Assembly (NCBI GenBank): GCA_963708075.1
Contig: OY970194.1
Location: 1,696,001 to 1,760,000, forward strand
DNA length: 64,000 bases
DNA from: Sedimentisphaerales bacterium
Lineage (GTDB): Bacteria; Planctomycetota; Phycisphaerae; Sedimentisphaerales; Anaerobacaceae
Direction: 5' to 3'
The position numbers were made by a program, and so were the translations under genes. This document shows positions 34,090 through 42,767 of the stretch, one piece after another; the first letter of the stretch is position 1, and the number at the start of each line of letters is the position of its first letter. Under the pieces are notes generated by a model. The model was not told the DNA's origin, ran no database searches, and saw only the letters and a list, made by a program, of their open reading frames with translations.

Positions 34090-34833
34090 TCAGTCCGGCC
34101 AGTGTTCCTGCTCCAGAATGGGCAAGATCACACTCAGGAGCTTTTCGCTGGCCTCCGTGGCGGCTGCCTTTGCCGGGGCGACATACCCCTGGTTGAAAAC
34201 CAGCTCGATCTTACAGAAATACGCATGTTTGCCGAAGATGTTTTTGTTCAGGGCCATGCGGGCGTCATCCCGGCTGCCCGCGTACTCCCCGTTCACGCGA
34301 AACAGGTACAGGACCGGAAATTGGCCCCCGCCTTGCAGGACGTCGCCGGCCGAAGCCCCGAAGAGGAGATACCGCCCCGGGACACTCCGGGCGTCACCCT
34401 CTGCGCCGAGTTGGAAGGTGACCCCGTTTGTCGCGATCCGTCGATAACCGCCGCCCGTGTAGCATTCCTCCGGCACGTGCGGCACGCGATCCGGAAGCTT
34501 GTAGTACGTGATGAACAGCAACACGTTTCGTGTGGGATTGTCGCCGGGCACACGGGGGTCTTCCAGGACCCACTGGATATAGTCCTCCGTCCCGAGAGAC
34601 TTCAGTATGTCCTCATTCTCGATACTGAGCCTGGCCGCCACCCGGTACGGGGCCAGTTTCTTCTCGTCCATCGCGCTGAGCGGCTTCTTCAACGGCAGCG
34701 GCTCTTTCTTCATGTACAGGCCGAGCTGCTTCTTGGCTACCGACATCCCCGCCCCGGCCAATCCAAGCACCACCACACAGAGCAAGAACGCCGGTTGCAG
34801 GTAAGCCCTTTTGTTGTCCCCGGTCCGCTTCAT
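34090..34833 (-). CDS. epsI: Exosortase-associated EpsI-family protein
   Basis: N-terminal TM helix and PHVPEECYTGGGY motif; ATGA overlap with the exosortase. Confidence 0.85.
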   Translation of the reverse strand: MKRTGDNKRAYLQPAFLLCVVVLGLAGAGMSVAKKQLGLYMKKEPLPLKKPLSAMDEKKLAPYRVAARLSIENEDILKSLGTEDYIQWVLEDPRVPGDNPTRNVLLFITYYKLPDRVPHVPEECYTGGGYRRIATNGVTFQLGAEGDARSVPGRYLLFGASAGDVLQGGGQFPVLYLFRVNGEYAGSRDDARMALNKNIFGKHAYFCKIELVFNQGYVAPAKAAATEASEKLLSVILPILEQEHWPD

Positions 34834-35879
34834 CTCTCGCTCCGCCTCCTCACAATCACGTTGTCGCCGCCGGAGCCTTCGTCCTCCTCGATGAACAGGC
34901 TCGCCATGAACGTCGCGAGCAGGCCGTAGAAGGCAAAGGCGAGCGGCAGCATGGCCAGGCCGAGCATATCGTGATAAATCCCCTGCGTGTACTGGGGCTC
35001 GGCCAGGACGTAGATGAAACCCGTCACGGTCACGCGAATGACGTTGCAGAGGATCGCGATCGGCACCGTGCTCAGCAGCAGCACGATCCGCTGCCACATC
35101 GGCCGATAGTGCAGGTAGGCCATCGCCACTCCCAGAGCCAGAAAGGCCATCATCAGCCGCATACCGCTGCATGCCTCGGCCACGTCCAGCGGCGGCTCCA
35201 GCCGATGCCCCTTGTAAACGATATCGATGACAACGCCGCTGGCCGTCGCGTCCACCCCATGGAGCAGATTCAGCAACGCCGTGGCAACCGATGCGGCGAT
35301 CTGCCGCATGGGCGTGGTCAGACCCACGTAGTAGCGCCGCGGCAAAGGCACCGCGAACAGGAGAAACACAATCGGCAACCACGTATATTGGACCAGACGC
35401 CATCCGCCCAGAAACAACACGACCGCCCCGACGGCGGCGATCATCGACACCGGCCGGAAATAGGCGTATCCGGACGGACTCACCACGTTGAATACGTAGA
35501 AGGCCAGTATCGCCAGCAGGAGGAGCAGGCCCAGGTAATTCGGCCGGGTCTGATTCGCGGGCAAGCGGCCGAGCCGGCGATTTCGGAACAGTTCGGCCAG
35601 CGGGTCCCGCACGTACTCCAAGCCGAGGATTTTCCGGCGGCGCTGGTGGATGAAATACAGGCTGAACAAAGGGATGAGGAAACCGTGCGACCAACTGGGG
35701 TCCGTCAGCCACAGATGAACCAGCTCCTGCAATTCGCTACGGAACAGGAAGCCCAACAGCGCCGCGAGAATCGCGATCTTCAAGTAACTGTGCAGCCCGA
35801 GCTCACCCCATCGGCGATCCTGCAGGGATGGGTCCGTGCCATACCCCCGGGTCGGTGACGAACCAAGCGTCTGAGCCAT
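34830..35879 (-). CDS. epsH: Exosortase (EpsH family)
   Basis: WSHGFLIP, catalytic VAEACSGMR, NVIRV and YHDMLG; multiple TM helices. Confidence 0.95.
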   Translation of the reverse strand: MAQTLGSSPTRGYGTDPSLQDRRWGELGLHSYLKIAILAALLGFLFRSELQELVHLWLTDPSWSHGFLIPLFSLYFIHQRRRKILGLEYVRDPLAELFRNRRLGRLPANQTRPNYLGLLLLLAILAFYVFNVVSPSGYAYFRPVSMIAAVGAVVLFLGGWRLVQYTWLPIVFLLFAVPLPRRYYVGLTTPMRQIAASVATALLNLLHGVDATASGVVIDIVYKGHRLEPPLDVAEACSGMRLMMAFLALGVAMAYLHYRPMWQRIVLLLSTVPIAILCNVIRVTVTGFIYVLAEPQYTQGIYHDMLGLAMLPLAFAFYGLLATFMASLFIEEDEGSGGDNVIVRRRSER

Positions 35880-35894
35880 ACCCCCCTGTTTTCG

Positions 35895-37898
35895 TCACAG
35901 CCAGTGAGGCAGGACGAAACCTTTCCCAAAGTCCGCGTCAGCAAAGTTCCGGTCGTACACGAAGCCGAAGCCGTAGGCTGCCCGGAAGGCGTTCCGCAGG
36001 ACAGCCCGCCAGCGCGCAGTGGGATGAGTCCCGACGTTGATCAGGTCGTGTGGCTTGATGAAGAAGTCGGGCTGCTCTCCCGCGGCGATCTTGTCCAGGT
36101 CCACCATGACGATTTCTTCTTTTTCCTTTCCGATCCGTCGAATGACCTCGACGTTCTTGGGCCACGCCAGAGGTCCGAGGCCGCCGGCGGCGGCGATGGC
36201 CATCTTCAGGGTCATCGGCCGGCCGGTAATGTTGATCACCCCACTACGATTCACATTACCCATAATAAAGAATTCGCCAATGATGTCAACCGGCACGTAC
36301 ACCGTATCGCCCGGCTTGATCACGACATTGTATCGGGGGTCGCCGGCCAACAGCTTGTCGGCGGGAATCCGGAGCACCCGGCTCTGTGCGGCTTGCTCCC
36401 ACTCGATCTCCGGCGGCAACTGCTCCCGATCAGGCGGCGGCGTCGCTGTGCGGGTCTCCAATCCAGTCGGCAGCATCGGTCCCCGGGTCTCCAGTCCGGT
36501 CGGCACCGCCGGCACGGTCTGGGGTTGCCCCTTTGGGATCTGGACCCACTGACCGTCGCGATATACCCATTCAGACTGTCCGCCCGTGCCTGTCCCGGTT
36601 TCTTGCGGCTTCGGGGAAACGTCTGCGATCGGCCGGGTCGGCACCGGCACCCACTGGCCATTGCGAAAGACCCAATCGTAGCTCTCCCCCGCTTTCAGTT
36701 CGGGCGGGGCCGCCTGCGCAGGGCTGTTGGGTTCATTGGCCAGCACGATCGGCGACTGTACCACGTCCTGCGGCCGCCGAGGTTTGTCTGCGGGCGGTTT
36801 CGGCGACCCGACGAGCTGGAAGCCGTAAGGCATCACGCTGGCCGTGACACTCTCGTCTTGCTTTTTGGCCGGCGCGGGAGTGGGAACGACTTTCGCGCTC
36901 GTCGGGAAACTGTCCTTCTTCGCAGACGGCGCGATCAAGTCGAGCATCTCCCTCTCCAGCTCGAATTTCTCCGCCGGCTCGCGGGGCTCAGGGATGTCGG
37001 CCTTGCGAGGCGGGACGACTGAAGGCTCAGGCCCTCGCGGCGTTGCAGTCACGCCCTCCAGTCTGCTCGGCCCGCTCGATTGCGGCTGAATCAATTCCAG
37101 TTCCGATCCAGGCACGGACCTGACCGTATTGCCGCCAGTGTTCATGACCGGCACAGATCTGGCTGTATTGCCTCCGGTGGCCGGAGCAGGCGCCAATCTG
37201 GTCGTATCACCTCCGGTGATCGGAGCAGGCGCAGATCTGGCCGTATCTTCGCGACTGGCGGCAGGTGCGGCTTGCGTGTCATCCTTTCGCGAGACGTACA
37301 CGTAGCTGACGTTGAACTGCATGGGGCCGCCCGACGTCGCCAATGCATCGGTCAGCCGGAAATCGTAACGGGGAATGAGGTATCGTCCGGGCCGCGACAC
37401 GCCGTTGCCCAGGATCGAGAAGGTCCGCTGCTGCGAGTCCAGCAGGATCACTGTCACCGTGGGCTCCTTCAGGATGTTCGGCGCCAGCGTCCGCTTGATC
37501 TCCTCCTCCAGTTGCGTCTCCGTCAACCCCGCCGCCTGTATGCGGCCAACCTCAGGGATGGATATCTGCCCGGTCTCGGAAACCATGAACTGGTTAACCA
37601 GCGCGACCCCTTCCTGGAACAGCTCGTAAATCGAGACTTGGACGAGGTCGCCCGGTCGTAGTGCATAGTCGCCCTTCTGCGCGACGACGTCTTTGGGCCG
37701 GGGGTCCTCCGCACTCTCCCAGGCCACCGGGGTTTCCTCCGCCACGCCCAGCGAATCCAGGATGACATTGACCGCAGGCGTAGGCCGGAAACGCCCGACC
37801 TGCGTGGGGTCAAGGACCTTGTTGGTGCATCCCCCAATACTCAGGCCGACCACAACGGCCAATACCAGATCACAGATGATGACTCGTAAGTAGCCCAT
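35895..37898 (-). CDS. wza: Polysaccharide export lipoprotein (Wza-like) with a long Pro-rich repetitive linker
   Basis: Lipobox IGGC; YALRPGD...GQISIPEVGRIQAAGLT poly-export domain; SLBB domains; IKPHDLINV. Confidence 0.88.
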   Translation of the reverse strand: MGYLRVIICDLVLAVVVGLSIGGCTNKVLDPTQVGRFRPTPAVNVILDSLGVAEETPVAWESAEDPRPKDVVAQKGDYALRPGDLVQVSIYELFQEGVALVNQFMVSETGQISIPEVGRIQAAGLTETQLEEEIKRTLAPNILKEPTVTVILLDSQQRTFSILGNGVSRPGRYLIPRYDFRLTDALATSGGPMQFNVSYVYVSRKDDTQAAPAASREDTARSAPAPITGGDTTRLAPAPATGGNTARSVPVMNTGGNTVRSVPGSELELIQPQSSGPSRLEGVTATPRGPEPSVVPPRKADIPEPREPAEKFELEREMLDLIAPSAKKDSFPTSAKVVPTPAPAKKQDESVTASVMPYGFQLVGSPKPPADKPRRPQDVVQSPIVLANEPNSPAQAAPPELKAGESYDWVFRNGQWVPVPTRPIADVSPKPQETGTGTGGQSEWVYRDGQWVQIPKGQPQTVPAVPTGLETRGPMLPTGLETRTATPPPDREQLPPEIEWEQAAQSRVLRIPADKLLAGDPRYNVVIKPGDTVYVPVDIIGEFFIMGNVNRSGVINITGRPMTLKMAIAAAGGLGPLAWPKNVEVIRRIGKEKEEIVMVDLDKIAAGEQPDFFIKPHDLINVGTHPTARWRAVLRNAFRAAYGFGFVYDRNFADADFGKGFVLPHWL
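37108..37252 (-). repeat. 39-bp (13-aa) coding tandem repeat in wza
   Basis: DTARSAPAPITGG / DTTRLAPAPATGG / NTARSVPVMNTGG / NTVRSVPG. Confidence 0.85.
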
Positions 37899-38346
37899 TC
37901 CAGAGATTTATCGGCTCCACGCGCGCCCCGCTTAAGTTTTTGACCCCCCAGAACGCGAAGATCATAGATCACAAGTGGAATTGGCCGGCACGAGCATACC
38001 CAAGGGTGCATAGTAATCCGTGTAGGCACCCCCGTTTTCAGTACTGAAACCACCATATTCAGTCAGACAACAGACCTTCTGATACCGCCATTTGGACCTA
38101 AGAAACGCATATCCCGCCATCGCCAGTTTCACTGATCCCTTAACACCGCGACGTTTCGCTTGCCTTCGCGCCACCTGGCCCCTACAATAAGACTATGAAT
38201 TTGCAGGCTGGCCAGGGAAGGATTTCTGGTTGATGCCCTGGGGGCCGGCAATCCGCGGGTGTCATGCCGCAGTGAGATGCCATTCATAATCGTGGCATCA
38301 GGTAGCGTTCTTGTTCTCTGCAAAAACGGGTCGCGAAGGTTAGCTG

Positions 38347-38643
38347 ATGCGAATCACGGATATCATCTGGAAGGAAGCTATTGTTGAGAAGCTGAGCTAC
38401 AAGCATGGCGTGTCGATTGCAGAGGCCGAGGAAGTCCTTCGTACCAAGCCGGTGGTGCGCAAGGTGATCAAAGGACGCGTACGCGGCGAGGATGTGTACG
38501 CCGCCATGGCGCAGATCGCCGGCGGAAGGTACTTGATCGTCTTCTTCATTGACAAGAAGCGAGGCATGGCGTTGCCCATCTCGGCGCGCGACATGGACCC
38601 CGCCGAAAGGAAATACTATGCGAAGCACAAAGAGACGGGTTGA
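38347..38643 (+). CDS. BrnT-family toxin
   Basis: W...KL..KHGVS..EAEEVL...GRYLIVFF...ISARDM...ERKYY. Confidence 0.88.
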   Translation: MRITDIIWKEAIVEKLSYKHGVSIAEAEEVLRTKPVVRKVIKGRVRGEDVYAAMAQIAGGRYLIVFFIDKKRGMALPISARDMDPAERKYYAKHKETG

Positions 38644-38887
38644 CCCGCTGCCGGACGAGTTCAAGTCACATGAGGAGGCAGCGGAATTCTGGGACACCCA
38701 CAGCATCACCGACTATGAGGAATTCCTGGAGCCTGCTGATCTTAACGTGGACATCCAGAGACGACACTTTCAGATCGAGGTGGATGAAGAGAGTTTCCTG
38801 GCTCTACGTGAGACCGCCAAAAAAGAACAGAAACCCGTCAAACAACTCGCCAGTGAAATCCTCAAGCAGAGGCTCGGCACTGGCTGA
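38618..38887 (+). CDS. Cognate antitoxin (BrnA/CopG-like)
   Basis: LPDEFKSHEEAAEFWDTHSITDY plus an RHH-like C-terminus; overlaps the toxin gene end. Confidence 0.85.
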   Translation: MRSTKRRVDPLPDEFKSHEEAAEFWDTHSITDYEEFLEPADLNVDIQRRHFQIEVDEESFLALRETAKKEQKPVKQLASEILKQRLGTG

Positions 38888-38966: not shown

Positions 38967-39185
38967 ATGACAGACCCCATCCACGAAGAGATTCACAAGT
39001 ATCGGGAGGAGCATGCTCGCAAGTTCAACTTCGATTTGGCTGCTATCTGCAAGGACCTGAAAGAGCGATCACGTAACCTCAAGGTGGTTCGCCTACCTCC
39101 GAACAAGCTAAGCCCCAAGAAGGGAAATAAGGTATGTCGCAACACGTCCCCCTTGCCTTTCTGCTGGCTTAGCTCTACAATATGA
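38967..39185 (+). CDS. Small protein of a type usually paired with PIN-domain toxins
   Basis: MTDPIHEEIHKYREEHARKFNFDLAAICKDL; GGAG ribosome-binding site. Confidence 0.65.
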   Translation: MTDPIHEEIHKYREEHARKFNFDLAAICKDLKERSRNLKVVRLPPNKLSPKKGNKVCRNTSPLPFCWLSSTI

Positions 39186-39348
39186 CTATGGAATCGCAGG
39201 CTCGTGCGCTTTTTGAGACGGACAAGAAAAGGTCGAGGCTGACACCGTGTGGCCAAGAAACCGTGATTTTGCGCTACACTAACCGCGAGGCGTGTAAACG
39301 CACTTGTCACCAACGCAATATAGTCATGGGTACGGGGAGGACCGTTCT

Positions 39349-39750
39349 ATGAAGACATCAGGGTTTTGGGGACATTTCGAAGAGCCCACAGCGGAGGCTA
39401 ATTCTCATTCCAGAGCCATTTGTGGCACCCAAACCAGGCAGCGAGAAGAGCCTGACCAACGAAACACATTCGTTATTGCAGACACAAAGACCGTGACGAA
39501 CACCCGGGAAGAAGCAGATCAAGATATCCATAATGGACACCATTGTGCGATACCGATCCGTGTTGCCTCCGGTGAAACGTTCACGAAACAGCGAGAGGAG
39601 CCTGATCAAGACGAAAGCAATCAAATCCATGTGGCAGTCCCTAGGCAATCTCTTTGCCGCACTCAGACGATGACGGAAGGACGAGAGGAACCAGACCAAG
39701 ACCAAAGCAGCTACGGATACAGTCCAATCCCTGTGAACACAAAAACATGA
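39349..39750 (+). CDS. Multi-core graspetide (omega-ester peptide) precursor
   Basis: GGAGG RBS; 133 aa; leader motif FWGHFEEP; four TxTxxREE(P/A)DQ(D/R) repeats; ATGA overlap with the ATP-grasp gene. Confidence 0.88.
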   Translation: MKTSGFWGHFEEPTAEANSHSRAICGTQTRQREEPDQRNTFVIADTKTVTNTREEADQDIHNGHHCAIPIRVASGETFTKQREEPDQDESNQIHVAVPRQSLCRTQTMTEGREEPDQDQSSYGYSPIPVNTKT

Positions 39751-40727
39751 ACATGACCGCTGAGCACGTTCTTGTCCTCACAAATTCATCTGACGTCACG
39801 TCCGACTATCTATGCTCAAGATTCGAGCAGGCACGGGTCGAATTCTCTCGATTCGACACAGACAGAGACTGCCGTGAAGCTGCGTTTCTATACCAAGCGC
39901 GAAGCCCCAGGCTCAAATGGGCTACACACTCCCTCACCGCAGATCAAGTAACAGCCGTCGTACTCAGACGACCCAAACCTGCGGAGGTTCACAGGAATAG
40001 CGACGTGTACTCCGAGAGGCATACCGCCGGAGAATGGTCAGAGGCAATAGAGGGATTCCTCGCTCATATAGACGAAACACTCTGGGTCAATCACCCAGCA
40101 AGGAATAGCGCCGCAAGCCACAAGATTGAGCAACTCAGCCGCGCGGAGAGGTACGGCTTACACGTTCCGCGGACCCTCGTAACCACCAATATTCAGGAGG
40201 CCGAGAGATTTGTCCTCTCTGAGAAGAATGGTGTCATCGTCAAGCCACTGGCCAGCGGCTTCATCGAAAGGGAAAGGCATGAACAGGATACTGTCATTTA
40301 CACGAGCCACTTCAAAGCAGAGAACATAGGCCTTCTGAAAGAGATTCAGTTCTGTCCTGTTCTATTCCAGGAAATGATTCTCAAAGCAATTGACGTTCGT
40401 GTGACGATGCTAGATGGGATCATCGTCGCAACGGGGATAAGAGCCATGGGACCAGATGGCAGGCAACGACTGGATGTCCGACGGAACAACATGTCTGACG
40501 TTGAGTACGTTCCGACCGAACCGCCGGCTGAAGTATCAGCCGCTGCTAGGTCGTTGGTGCGAAGCTATGGACTGCGCTTTGCTGCTCTTGATTTTGGCGT
40601 CGCGGAGTCCGGAGAGTGGTTCTTCTTTGAGATCAATCCTAATGGCCAGTGGGCATGGCTTGATCTTCATGGGAAGGCAGACATCGCATCGGTGTTTGTC
40701 AGACAATTGAAGGAGCCTCACCCTTGA
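39747..40727 (+). CDS. ATP-grasp peptide macrocyclase (MvdC/MvdD-like graspetide synthetase)
   Basis: VLVLTNSSDVTSDY, WVNHP...ASHKIEQL...GLHVPRTLVT, IVKPL, PVLFQEMI.K..DVRVT, DVRR, FAALDF and FFEINPNGQWAWL motifs. Confidence 0.92.
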   Translation: MNMTAEHVLVLTNSSDVTSDYLCSRFEQARVEFSRFDTDRDCREAAFLYQARSPRLKWATHSLTADQVTAVVLRRPKPAEVHRNSDVYSERHTAGEWSEAIEGFLAHIDETLWVNHPARNSAASHKIEQLSRAERYGLHVPRTLVTTNIQEAERFVLSEKNGVIVKPLASGFIERERHEQDTVIYTSHFKAENIGLLKEIQFCPVLFQEMILKAIDVRVTMLDGIIVATGIRAMGPDGRQRLDVRRNNMSDVEYVPTEPPAEVSAAARSLVRSYGLRFAALDFGVAESGEWFFFEINPNGQWAWLDLHGKADIASVFVRQLKEPHP

Positions 40728-41530
40728 GAATTGGCGACTTCCTATTGACGATCTGCAAGTCCTGCGAGAATGTTGGCGAAAAGGCATGCCGTGTAGCGAC
40801 TTATGCCCTTCTATTCATCCTGAACCCAGGCCATAGATATAGGGAAGTCAAGGCGCAGCGAATGGACGTAGGCGTGATACGGGACACCGATGCTCCAAGG
40901 ATCACACCTGTCAGTGCAGAAGCCGCTCGTGAGTATTTTCAGGAGGAACTCCGGAGAGGCCAAGTCGTCGATGAGAAGAATAAAGTCCTACTGACTGTCG
41001 CGGCTCTCTTGGTTGCAGCATGCGCAGCCATTGCATCCAACATTGAACCCAAATGGCCAATTCTCCTCCCACTAACCTTAACCGGGATTTCGGTCTTTCT
41101 TGTCCTAGTACACTTCGGTGTCCGATCTGTTCCTGTACCCAGCCATGAAATAACCGACCAAGAGAAACTGGCGGAGTCGTTCTCGGAATGCAGAAAGTCC
41201 CTCTCGCTGGCTACCTCCTATAGGGTAGGAGTCTATCGTGCTTCGCTGCGTGCCGCGACATTGGGCATTGTGTCGTTGCTACTTGTCTTTGCCTATTTTG
41301 CCTTCAGCAGAGCCGCATCTTCTGAGAACAAACTCATCAGGGCTGTGAAGAACGATTTGGAACTCGCAGATTGGCTACGGGGACCACAAGGCCCAGTCGG
41401 ACCGCCAGGGCCCAAGGGTGAACGAGGGCCAGAGGGCCCACAAGGTCCTATTGGACCTCAGGGGCCACAGGGATCTACTGGACCTGAAGCCTCACAAAGA
41501 TCCCTTGAGGATGGTGGCGAGGCGGGATGA
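40724..41530 (+). CDS. Membrane protein with a C-terminal collagen-like (Gly-X-Y)12 tail
   Basis: TTGA overlap with the ATP-grasp gene; three hydrophobic helices; GPQGPVGPPGPKGERGPEGPQGPIGPQGPQGSTGPE at 41381-41488. Confidence 0.75.
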   Translation: MRIGDFLLTICKSCENVGEKACRVATYALLFILNPGHRYREVKAQRMDVGVIRDTDAPRITPVSAEAAREYFQEELRRGQVVDEKNKVLLTVAALLVAACAAIASNIEPKWPILLPLTLTGISVFLVLVHFGVRSVPVPSHEITDQEKLAESFSECRKSLSLATSYRVGVYRASLRAATLGIVSLLLVFAYFAFSRAASSENKLIRAVKNDLELADWLRGPQGPVGPPGPKGERGPEGPQGPIGPQGPQGSTGPEASQRSLEDGGEAG

Positions 41531-42616: not shown

Positions 42617-42767
42617 GTAGCATAGGCATCTTGCCCCTGCTGGGTGCCATGCTTACGCTTGCGTGAGCATGCCTTGCCCAGCGAGTCGAGCATGTCTACG
42701 CAAGCGTAGACATGGCACCCGGCCCTATGAAAAGCCGTCTTTTCCGCGGGCGAGACGCCCGTGCTAC
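42617..42767. repeat. Nested REP-like elements: outer GTAGCA...TGCTAC pair and inner GGGTGCCATG...CATGGCACCC pair (42642-42720)
   Basis: Visible inverted palindromic pairs; the outer end contains the TAG stop of the Fe-S gene. Confidence 0.75.

Follow-up and report, generated by a model that had tools for sequence, protein, structure and literature searches.

The stretch of DNA analysed here (the window, 64,000 nucleotides of contig OY970194.1, positions 1,696,001 to 1,760,000, from the Sedimentisphaerales bacterium assembly GCA_963708075.1) carries on its forward strand a cassette of three short genes (39349..41530, 2.2 kb) that encode, in this order, a precursor peptide, an ATP-grasp ligase and a membrane protein. 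The genes are translationally coupled, with the precursor and ligase joined by ATGA (39747-39750) and the ligase and membrane gene by TTGA (40724-40727), and a Shine-Dalgarno sequence, GGAGG (39336..39340, + strand), lies 8 nt ahead of the precursor ATG. A preliminary description of this DNA had reported the 133-residue open reading frame (ORF) with its GGAGG ribosome-binding site, both couplings, an N-terminal FWGHFEEP, four cores starting at residues 27, 48, 77 and 107, and the ligase motifs DVRR and EINPNGQW, and we found each of these exactly in place. The cassette very likely makes a lactone-bearing graspetide, one of the peptides (RiPPs) that ribosomes synthesise and that are modified after translation, with the membrane gene as a dedicated member. 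The product is very probably a small protein that carries four stapled units, each shaped as a ring.

The precursor peptide (P0001, 133 residues, 39349..39750, + strand) has an average mass of 15,057 Da, an xIP tail and no double-glycine (GG) motif; a GG site was found in none of 11 close precursors. Its leader contains FWGHFEE (aa6-12, 39364..39384, + strand; FWGHFEEP spans aa6-13), which follows the pattern F-x-x-x-F-x-E and is the presumed ligase-binding helix. Residues F6, W7, F10, E11 and E12 are invariant in the alignment of the 11 close precursors. Four cores, located by motif scan and alignment and all on the + strand, fit TxTxxREExDQ(D/R). Core 1 (aa27-38, 39427..39462) has two Thr and ends in DQR, core 2 (aa48-59, 39490..39525) has the extra Thr46 and Thr52, core 3 (aa77-88, 39577..39612) combines two Thr with Lys80, and core 4 (aa107-118, 39667..39702) has the extra Thr105. 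Shuffling the residues of the precursor 100,000 times yielded one core in a single shuffle and two cores in none, and the strict core motif has four matches in the six frames of the 7.5-Mb genome, all inside the precursor ORF. Because the cores are dissimilar as DNA and no repeat family spans them, they appear to be kept by selection at the protein level.

Conservation was assessed over the 44 cores of the 11 close precursors, where the search pattern itself fixes Thr1, Thr3, Glu7 and Gln11. The cores stay in register across the alignment, and the other positions retain Arg6 in 41, Glu8 in 43, Asp10 in 42 and Asp12 in 31 cores. The core, previously described as invariant, falls short of full invariance: core 1 ends in DQR, and Asp12 is kept in 31 of the 44. 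Additional Thr residues occur at position -1 (14/44) and at position +5 (20/44).

The ligase (P0002, 326 residues, 39747..40727, + strand) carries DVRR at aa243-246 and EINPNGQW; an alternative in-frame ATG at 39753 would give 324 residues, the length of a database record with 100% identity. Against NCBIfam models the protein scored 233.6 bits with TIGR04187, 156 with MvdC, 134.7 with MvdD, 31.3 with RimK and at most 22 with the GshB models. Membership of the RimK family was rejected, the 31.3 bits with TIGR00768 lying below its cut-off of 143.4. All six PDB sequence matches were graspetide-type ATP-grasp ligases, judged by name or entry title, and the AlphaFold model (predicted local distance difference test, pLDDT, 89.1) matched MdnC with E 1e-25 and a template modelling (TM) score of 0.79, compared with E 1e-14 and TM 0.65 for RimK. 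The closest named relatives come from Sedimentisphaerales metagenome-assembled genomes (MAGs), at 68-72% identity.

Three trees were built: a quick IQ-TREE of 90 rows, which excludes ORFs below 290 aa, and two subsamples, a FastTree of 70 rows and a quick IQ-TREE of 19 rows. Reference ligases were labelled from annotation or precursors, with groups 4 and 6 absent and none confirmed as group 2. In all three trees the ligase falls in a long-stemmed branch (support 99-100) apart from microviridin, actinobacterial, group 3, group 5 and group 7 ligases and from RimK, the deeper order being unresolved. A clade uniting the branch with four group 3/5 ligases was rejected by the approximately unbiased (AU) test (p 0.012); for a union of the branch with RimK the test was marginal, and this value (p 0.046) mainly mirrors the attachment point of a very long outgroup. 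The branch is further marked by how it spells the D(F/W)R loop, which is conserved in graspetide ligases and needed for PsnB activity according to the available text of 10.1101/2021.03.09.434688. Here the loop reads D-V-R (aa243-245, 40473..40481, + strand), and D-[IV]-R, with Asp and Arg retained and the aromatic residue replaced by Ile or Val, is present in 39/39 branch rows, as against DWR for the other ligases (27/28) and [SA]N[LI]H for all three RimK rows. R218 appears to be the counterpart of PsnB Arg213, an Arg that is also found in RimK and so does not discriminate. Because profiles, PDB matches, the MdnC-like fold and trees point the same way, the enzyme is a graspetide synthetase and not RimK or GshB, as the preliminary description had proposed, and in phylogeny it takes its place among graspetide ligases.

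By analogy with MdnC and PsnB, the ligase would bind the precursor through the F-x-x-x-F-x-E leader and, with ATP, would activate the side chains of Glu/Asp within every TxTxxREExDQD core, onto which the two invariant Thr would be esterified, so that each core would gain two or more nested lactones. We predict with high confidence that leader-guided, ATP-dependent chemistry forms 8 to 11 Thr-Glu/Asp lactones per precursor. The corresponding loss of water would be 8 molecules, or up to 11 if Thr46, Thr52 and Thr105 react. The earlier figure of about two esters per core accordingly holds as a floor and not as a fixed number. Which Glu is the donor cannot be predicted because both are near-invariant and the spacings of groups 5 and 6 indicate different ones; ring connectivity is beyond safe prediction. 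Counting against this assignment of chemistry, in which dehydration and activity are predictions, the ligase scores under all curated NCBIfam cut-offs (350 for TIGR04187).

Since the cores have a group 5/6-like and not a thuringinin-like spacing, the chemistry varies a known theme: it is a variant of already known graspetide cores, in a branch that is uncatalogued as far as we found. In the available text of PMC8939145 the motifs overlap, and groups 3, 5 and 6 are merged as cluster 13. Group 6 (graspetides of the OEP6-1 type, in Makarova's cluster 13 and the thuringinin branch) resembles the present precursor in its tandem cores, in which T-x-T-x-T is followed after 3-4 residues by E-x-x-D-x-D. 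Among the available supplement rows labelled group 6 are some with the three-residue spacing that cores 2 and 4 show, and the leaders in them start with a PFIxxFxE-like motif. The group 6 pattern T-x-T-x-T-x(3-4)-E-x-x-D-x-D, as read from those rows, fits cores 2 and 4 but not cores 1 and 3. OEP6-1 itself has three nested cross-links (PMC12291112, available text). Unlike in this precursor, leaders of group 6 in the available rows add a Y-D/S-x-x-x-N-L segment, and the third Thr is optional here (14/44 cores). No group 6 ligase was found in plasmid, phage and viral collections, and the likeness stands at the precursor level.

Group 5 (cluster 13; for example the proviral loci L089 and L094) shares with the cassette its gene order, a homologous membrane gene and, if the second Glu is used, the spacing T-x-T-x-x-x-x-E-x-D. 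The full group 5 core T-x-T-x-x-x-x-E-x-D-D (Fig. S2 rows) was not found, Gln following Asp in 4/4 cores, so that the core end is DD there and DQD here; group 5 leaders are longer, and their ligases have DWR and lie outside this branch by the AU test already given for groups 3 and 5. The preliminary description had pointed to the leader motif of thuringinin (group 3; TgnA/TgnB; thuringinin-like locus L115), and a multi-core precursor, a single ligase and a membrane gene in the branch are common to both, as are, if the prediction for this cassette holds, the two esters that each thuringinin repeat carries (PMC12291112, available text). However, the thuringinin core T-x-x-T-x-x-x-E-x-x-D-x-D (Fig. 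S2) is absent, with T-x-x-T in 0/4 cores, and we rejected membership on this spacing and on the separate position of the ligase in the tree. The enzyme is like MdnB/MdnC, CdnC and PsnB in fold and in conserved RR and xxR positions; it differs in identity, which is about 26% or less, and in having D-V-R for D(F/W)R. Unlike microviridin loci, the cassette has one ligase rather than two and lacks the C39-ABC exporter or HlyD seen in L114.

The membrane partner (P0003, 268 residues, TTG start, 40724..41530, + strand) has three hydrophobic helices (about aa88-106, 113-133 and 177-197) and conserved R78, K85 and LLT, which match PycTM weakly. It ends in a collagen-like Gly-X-Y tail (aa220-254, 41381..41485, + strand; PF01391 E 2.8e-5, under the curated cut-off) that is predicted to be extracytoplasmic and trimer-forming and that recurs in 41 of 66 partner genes of the loci and in 97 of 140 representatives. 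The positive-inside rule would place the R78/K85 helix in the cytoplasm and the collagen tail outside. The P0003 model is confident and all-helical (pLDDT 93.8); Foldseek returned no match to it at E 0.001, and a fold search gave solely generic helical bundles (Z at most 10.2), which is uninformative. The PADLOC PycTM profile PDLC02365 matched 20 of 25 family members weakly, at E 0.1 or below (best 9.1e-6; P0003 9e-4), and hhalign to 16 Pfam-defined PycTM proteins gave a probability of 90.4, compared with no more than 5.2 in any of 11 controls that had been reversed or shuffled locally. The partner weakly resembles the Pycsar effector PycTM as a three-helix membrane protein with a D-x-K-x-x-x-L-L-T helix, and differs from it in its extra N-terminal helices and collagen tail. 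The P0003 family also aligned by hhalign to the proteins downstream in seven more distant loci, L085, L087, L089 and L091-L094 (probability 96), among them loci of group 5/7 type, and the partner is probably kin to Makarova's cluster 18. Both the collagen tail and the PycTM resemblance of the third gene go beyond the preliminary description. Fusions of ligase and membrane protein were seen in 2 of 149 representatives, unrelated to each other (P0176, 584 aa; P0195, 571 aa).

A metagenome scan confirmed at least 538 relatives, and 79 loci were retained; the locus counts given here derive from L001-L079 and L083 and include the locus itself and two duplicate pairs. A homologue of the third gene lies downstream in 66 of the 70 loci with downstream room, and a precursor with the pattern [TS]x[TS]x(3-4)ExxDx[DER] lies upstream in 56 of the 65 with upstream room. 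Precursors of the family have one to five cores, with the F-x-x-x-F-x-E leader in 51/59 and the xIP tail in 42/59. Core length tracks sub-branches, being short at this locus and one residue longer in a second sub-branch. The branch with the leader motif spans Planctomycetota, Cyanobacteria and many unassigned contigs, so the motif, common to a broad branch, is not lineage-specific. The cassette is rare and patchy: it was found in 2 of 401 genomes of the class, and none of 23 congeners, several of them incomplete MAGs, carries the branch. One of the 23 has a related ligase elsewhere in its genome, in the group 7-type locus L220 (G685:C83:19342-23271), where a single TKKxDxETGED-like core is accompanied by a downstream gene of about 215 aa.

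Three further loci deserve mention. An Acaryochloris plasmid carries a broken branch copy (L117:4860-7407) in which an IS1 transposase splits the precursor from the ligase and the ligase is in pieces. The ORF upstream in L050 (332-778) has a FWxxFEE leader and REE repeats with few Thr and no Asp, and its core chemistry is possibly divergent, with Lys or Ser donors. The single-core precursor at L093:7789-8016 ends in a PTHSKT...GDDDPDE-type core, has a related membrane gene downstream and falls outside the labelled groups.

We scanned the surroundings of the branch with PADLOC. The 220 ORFs examined lie no more than 5 kb from 39 branch loci whose flanks were usable, and they were compared to 208 ORFs in 40 control regions of 7 kb, placed arbitrarily in 9 genomes of the same phylum. 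Any match at E 1e-20 was found at 21/39 loci and 9/40 controls (Fisher p 0.005, a value that overstates the effect because kin are non-independent and controls were not taxon-matched). After generic matches had been removed by eye, defence neighbours remained at 15/39 loci and 4/40 controls, and named systems alone (restriction-modification, CBASS, Thoeris, Pycsar, BREX, Dpd, SEFIR, retron and Dsr) at 12/39 and 2/40. As a mobile control we took actinobacterial graspetide loci from proviral contigs (12 loci on 11 distinct contigs, 3.5 kb flanks), of which one had a match; the neighbours of six group 5/7-type loci included two methyltransferases and one generic ABC ATPase. Among the 94 nearest neighbours, no C39 peptidase or ABC transporter was detected (Pfam, E 1e-8). 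One complete Pycsar system adjoins L042, as a separate neighbour.

Because of the PycTM resemblance, the lack of an adjoining exporter or C39 protease and the enrichment of defence neighbours, we consider a role in defence. Lacking a GG site, a protease and an exporter, the four-unit product would remain in the cell, and the peptide together with its dedicated three-helix, PycTM-like membrane protein would act as a conflict module, likeliest against phage. The peptide may hold or gate the membrane protein or trap a phage protease, and infection would then release membrane damage. That the cassette is such a cell-retained defence or conflict module seems to us, on this analysis, quite possible, if somewhat short of an even chance. 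The narrower version, in which an intracellular multivalent lactone-stapled peptide is the ligand, the gate or the protease sensor of an anti-phage effector related to PycTM, would be rather unlikely taken by itself. What the defence role, the released inhibitor and the addiction module discussed below leave of the probability on roles lies with other readings.

Much can be said against the defence reading. The similarity to PycTM is confined to 44 columns, Pfam PycTM matched 0/25 family members, the Atlas score of 0.78 for PycTM is a lead at most, and membership of Pycsar was rejected, there being no cyclase in the cassette. Both ligase-membrane protein fusions are singletons, either real or assembly frameshifts. 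Beyond the dependence among loci noted above, the PADLOC matches were sorted by eye after they had been viewed, and 24 of the 39 loci have no clear defence neighbour. Whatever mobile cargo there is tends to gather in defence islands. The present locus has a BrnT toxin-antitoxin pair alone as its neighbours, in a generic variable slot, and what occupies that slot in 7 congeners is esterases, transporters, HNH proteins and toxin-antitoxin genes, with no canonical defence systems. Two statements from the literature, that all characterised graspetides are protease inhibitors and that the membrane protein of cluster 18 and the thuringinin branch is proposed to be a transporter (PMC8939145, available text), add to these points.

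The same two statements favour the alternative that stands up best, a multivalent protease inhibitor that is released after host proteases trim its leader and linkers, the membrane protein serving it as a dedicated exporter, as an anchor at the surface or as self-protection, and the defence islands being explained by hitch-hiking. The alignment of the membrane family to the membrane genes of group 5/7-type loci and a collagen tail that fits a surface role accord with it, as do the C39 domain elsewhere in the genome and the fact that most graspetide clusters are without dedicated protease and export genes (10.1101/2023.06.21.545981, available text). However, the supposed exporter would be a three-helix protein of 200 residues without an energy-coupling domain, all 11 close precursors lack the GG site, and the PycTM resemblance and the defence enrichment also count against this account. 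We regard this account as possible, though more doubtful than not.

An addiction module, in which a toxic membrane protein is neutralised by the stapled peptide and the cassette persists selfishly without a phage trigger, is improbable. The strict coupling of the three genes, the sporadic spread in mobile slots beside toxin-antitoxin genes and the resemblance of the partner to a membrane-damaging effector would suit it, but 4 of 70 loci keep the ligase without the membrane gene. Typical antitoxins are unstable, and ester-stapled peptides are expected to be stable, which again counts against such a module. Finally, that the enzyme is RimK/GshB-like or acts on another substrate, the repeat ORF not being its substrate, is very improbable, since against the sub-threshold family scores and the marginal AU value stand the TIGR04187 score of 233.6 bits, compared with 31.3 for RimK, the D-[IV]-R loop and the Thr/acid repeat precursors ahead of 56 of 65 loci.

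Returning to the defence reading, its nearest functional analogy is with lanthivirins, RiPP clusters that confer phage resistance and likewise have no protease of their own; their chemistry and enzymes are unrelated. Anti-phage lanthipeptide clusters without a protease exist (10.64898/2026.08.26.747419, available text, citing Shomar et al.), and RiPPs are co-expressed with defence genes, no graspetide example appearing in the available text of PMC11118758. A preprint on an integrative and conjugative element of P. gingivalis concerns, in the part available, graspetides of another type, which come with a secretion system. Our literature search, whose coverage left out most subscription papers, returned no paper on this branch or on a defence role of graspetides. 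The branch does not appear in the available parts of PMC8939145; Lee 2020, Ramesh 2021 or Choi and Link 2023 could list it. The words REEPD, REEAD, REESD and EEPDQD occur in 0/11 supplementary files of PMC8939145, where a word may be hidden by a line wrap, a gap or a cut cell, and the xIP linker or tail was not found in the available parts of these supplements.

The cassette bears on what multi-core graspetides that lack exporters do in nature. If the defence reading is true, it would be the first defence role that we could find for graspetides, a large branch of RiPPs would turn out to serve immunity, and a role in defence would extend to thuringinin-type loci, whose "uncharacterised membrane protein" has so far been read as a transporter. 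Even if it fails, the branch offers a new macrocyclase type, with a D-[IV]-R loop, a short leader and two core lengths, that is useful for cyclic-peptide engineering. It also places graspetides in Planctomycetota, a phylum from which no member is named in Makarova's ligase table (Table S1 of PMC8939145, available part).

Caspase-family (Peptidase_C14) genes adjoin 3 of the 39 branch loci (L044:1202-2725, L045:1676-2623 and L056:10322-11365), and L044 belongs to the four loci that lack the membrane gene. A peptide that inhibits proteases, placed next to a caspase, could form a regulated death module with it. On a Rhizobium plasmid, a group 7-type locus (L119:1-6515) has as its flanking genes an ABC three-component gene and a pair of AbiEi and AbiEii.

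In composition the cassette stands out from its surroundings. Its GC content is 52.7%, against 60.4% for the genome, and is equally low in 24 of 3416 segments of 2.2 kb; GC at third codon positions (GC3) is 0.47-0.57 in its genes and 0.76-0.80 in the flanking genes. This agrees with the lower GC reported in the preliminary description, which was also right that toxin-antitoxin genes precede the operon and that no ABC exporter, protease or methyltransferase gene adjoins it. The slot lies between a polysaccharide-export gene and a permease, and its content is different and variable in the 7 congeners that have both flanking genes on one contig. Because of these differences we regard the cassette as an insertion in a variable slot; it moves horizontally. 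No flanking direct repeats marking the insertion were found in a repeat scan. The slot neighbours are a BrnT-family toxin (38347..38643, + strand; PF04365 E 2.8e-9) and a CopG-type antitoxin (38624..38887, + strand; PF12441 E 1.1e-9). They were rejected as cassette members, being present in congeners without the cassette.

Scans of the region gave promoter-like and terminator matches at chance level (2 found and 2.4 expected, and 4 found and 4.0 expected, respectively), and a search of sequencing runs listed no RNA run containing the locus. The two promoter-like matches share the hexamers TTGCCT-17-TACAAT: one (38160-38188) precedes the toxin-antitoxin pair and the other (39153-39181) precedes the precursor and overlaps a 22-nt imperfect inverted repeat (39106-39174). 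An ORF of 72 aa (38967-39185) in the interval between antitoxin and precursor has no meaningful family match, and similar DNA is found in several congeners. The only C39 peptidase domain of the genome is encoded away from the cassette (G000:C1:4601178-4601519). An 85-bp intergenic repeat at about 42640-42725 has several copies in the genome at 94% identity and many in congeners. The left flank of the slot (34090-37898) holds exosortase (EpsH) and polysaccharide-export genes, which are kept in congeners.

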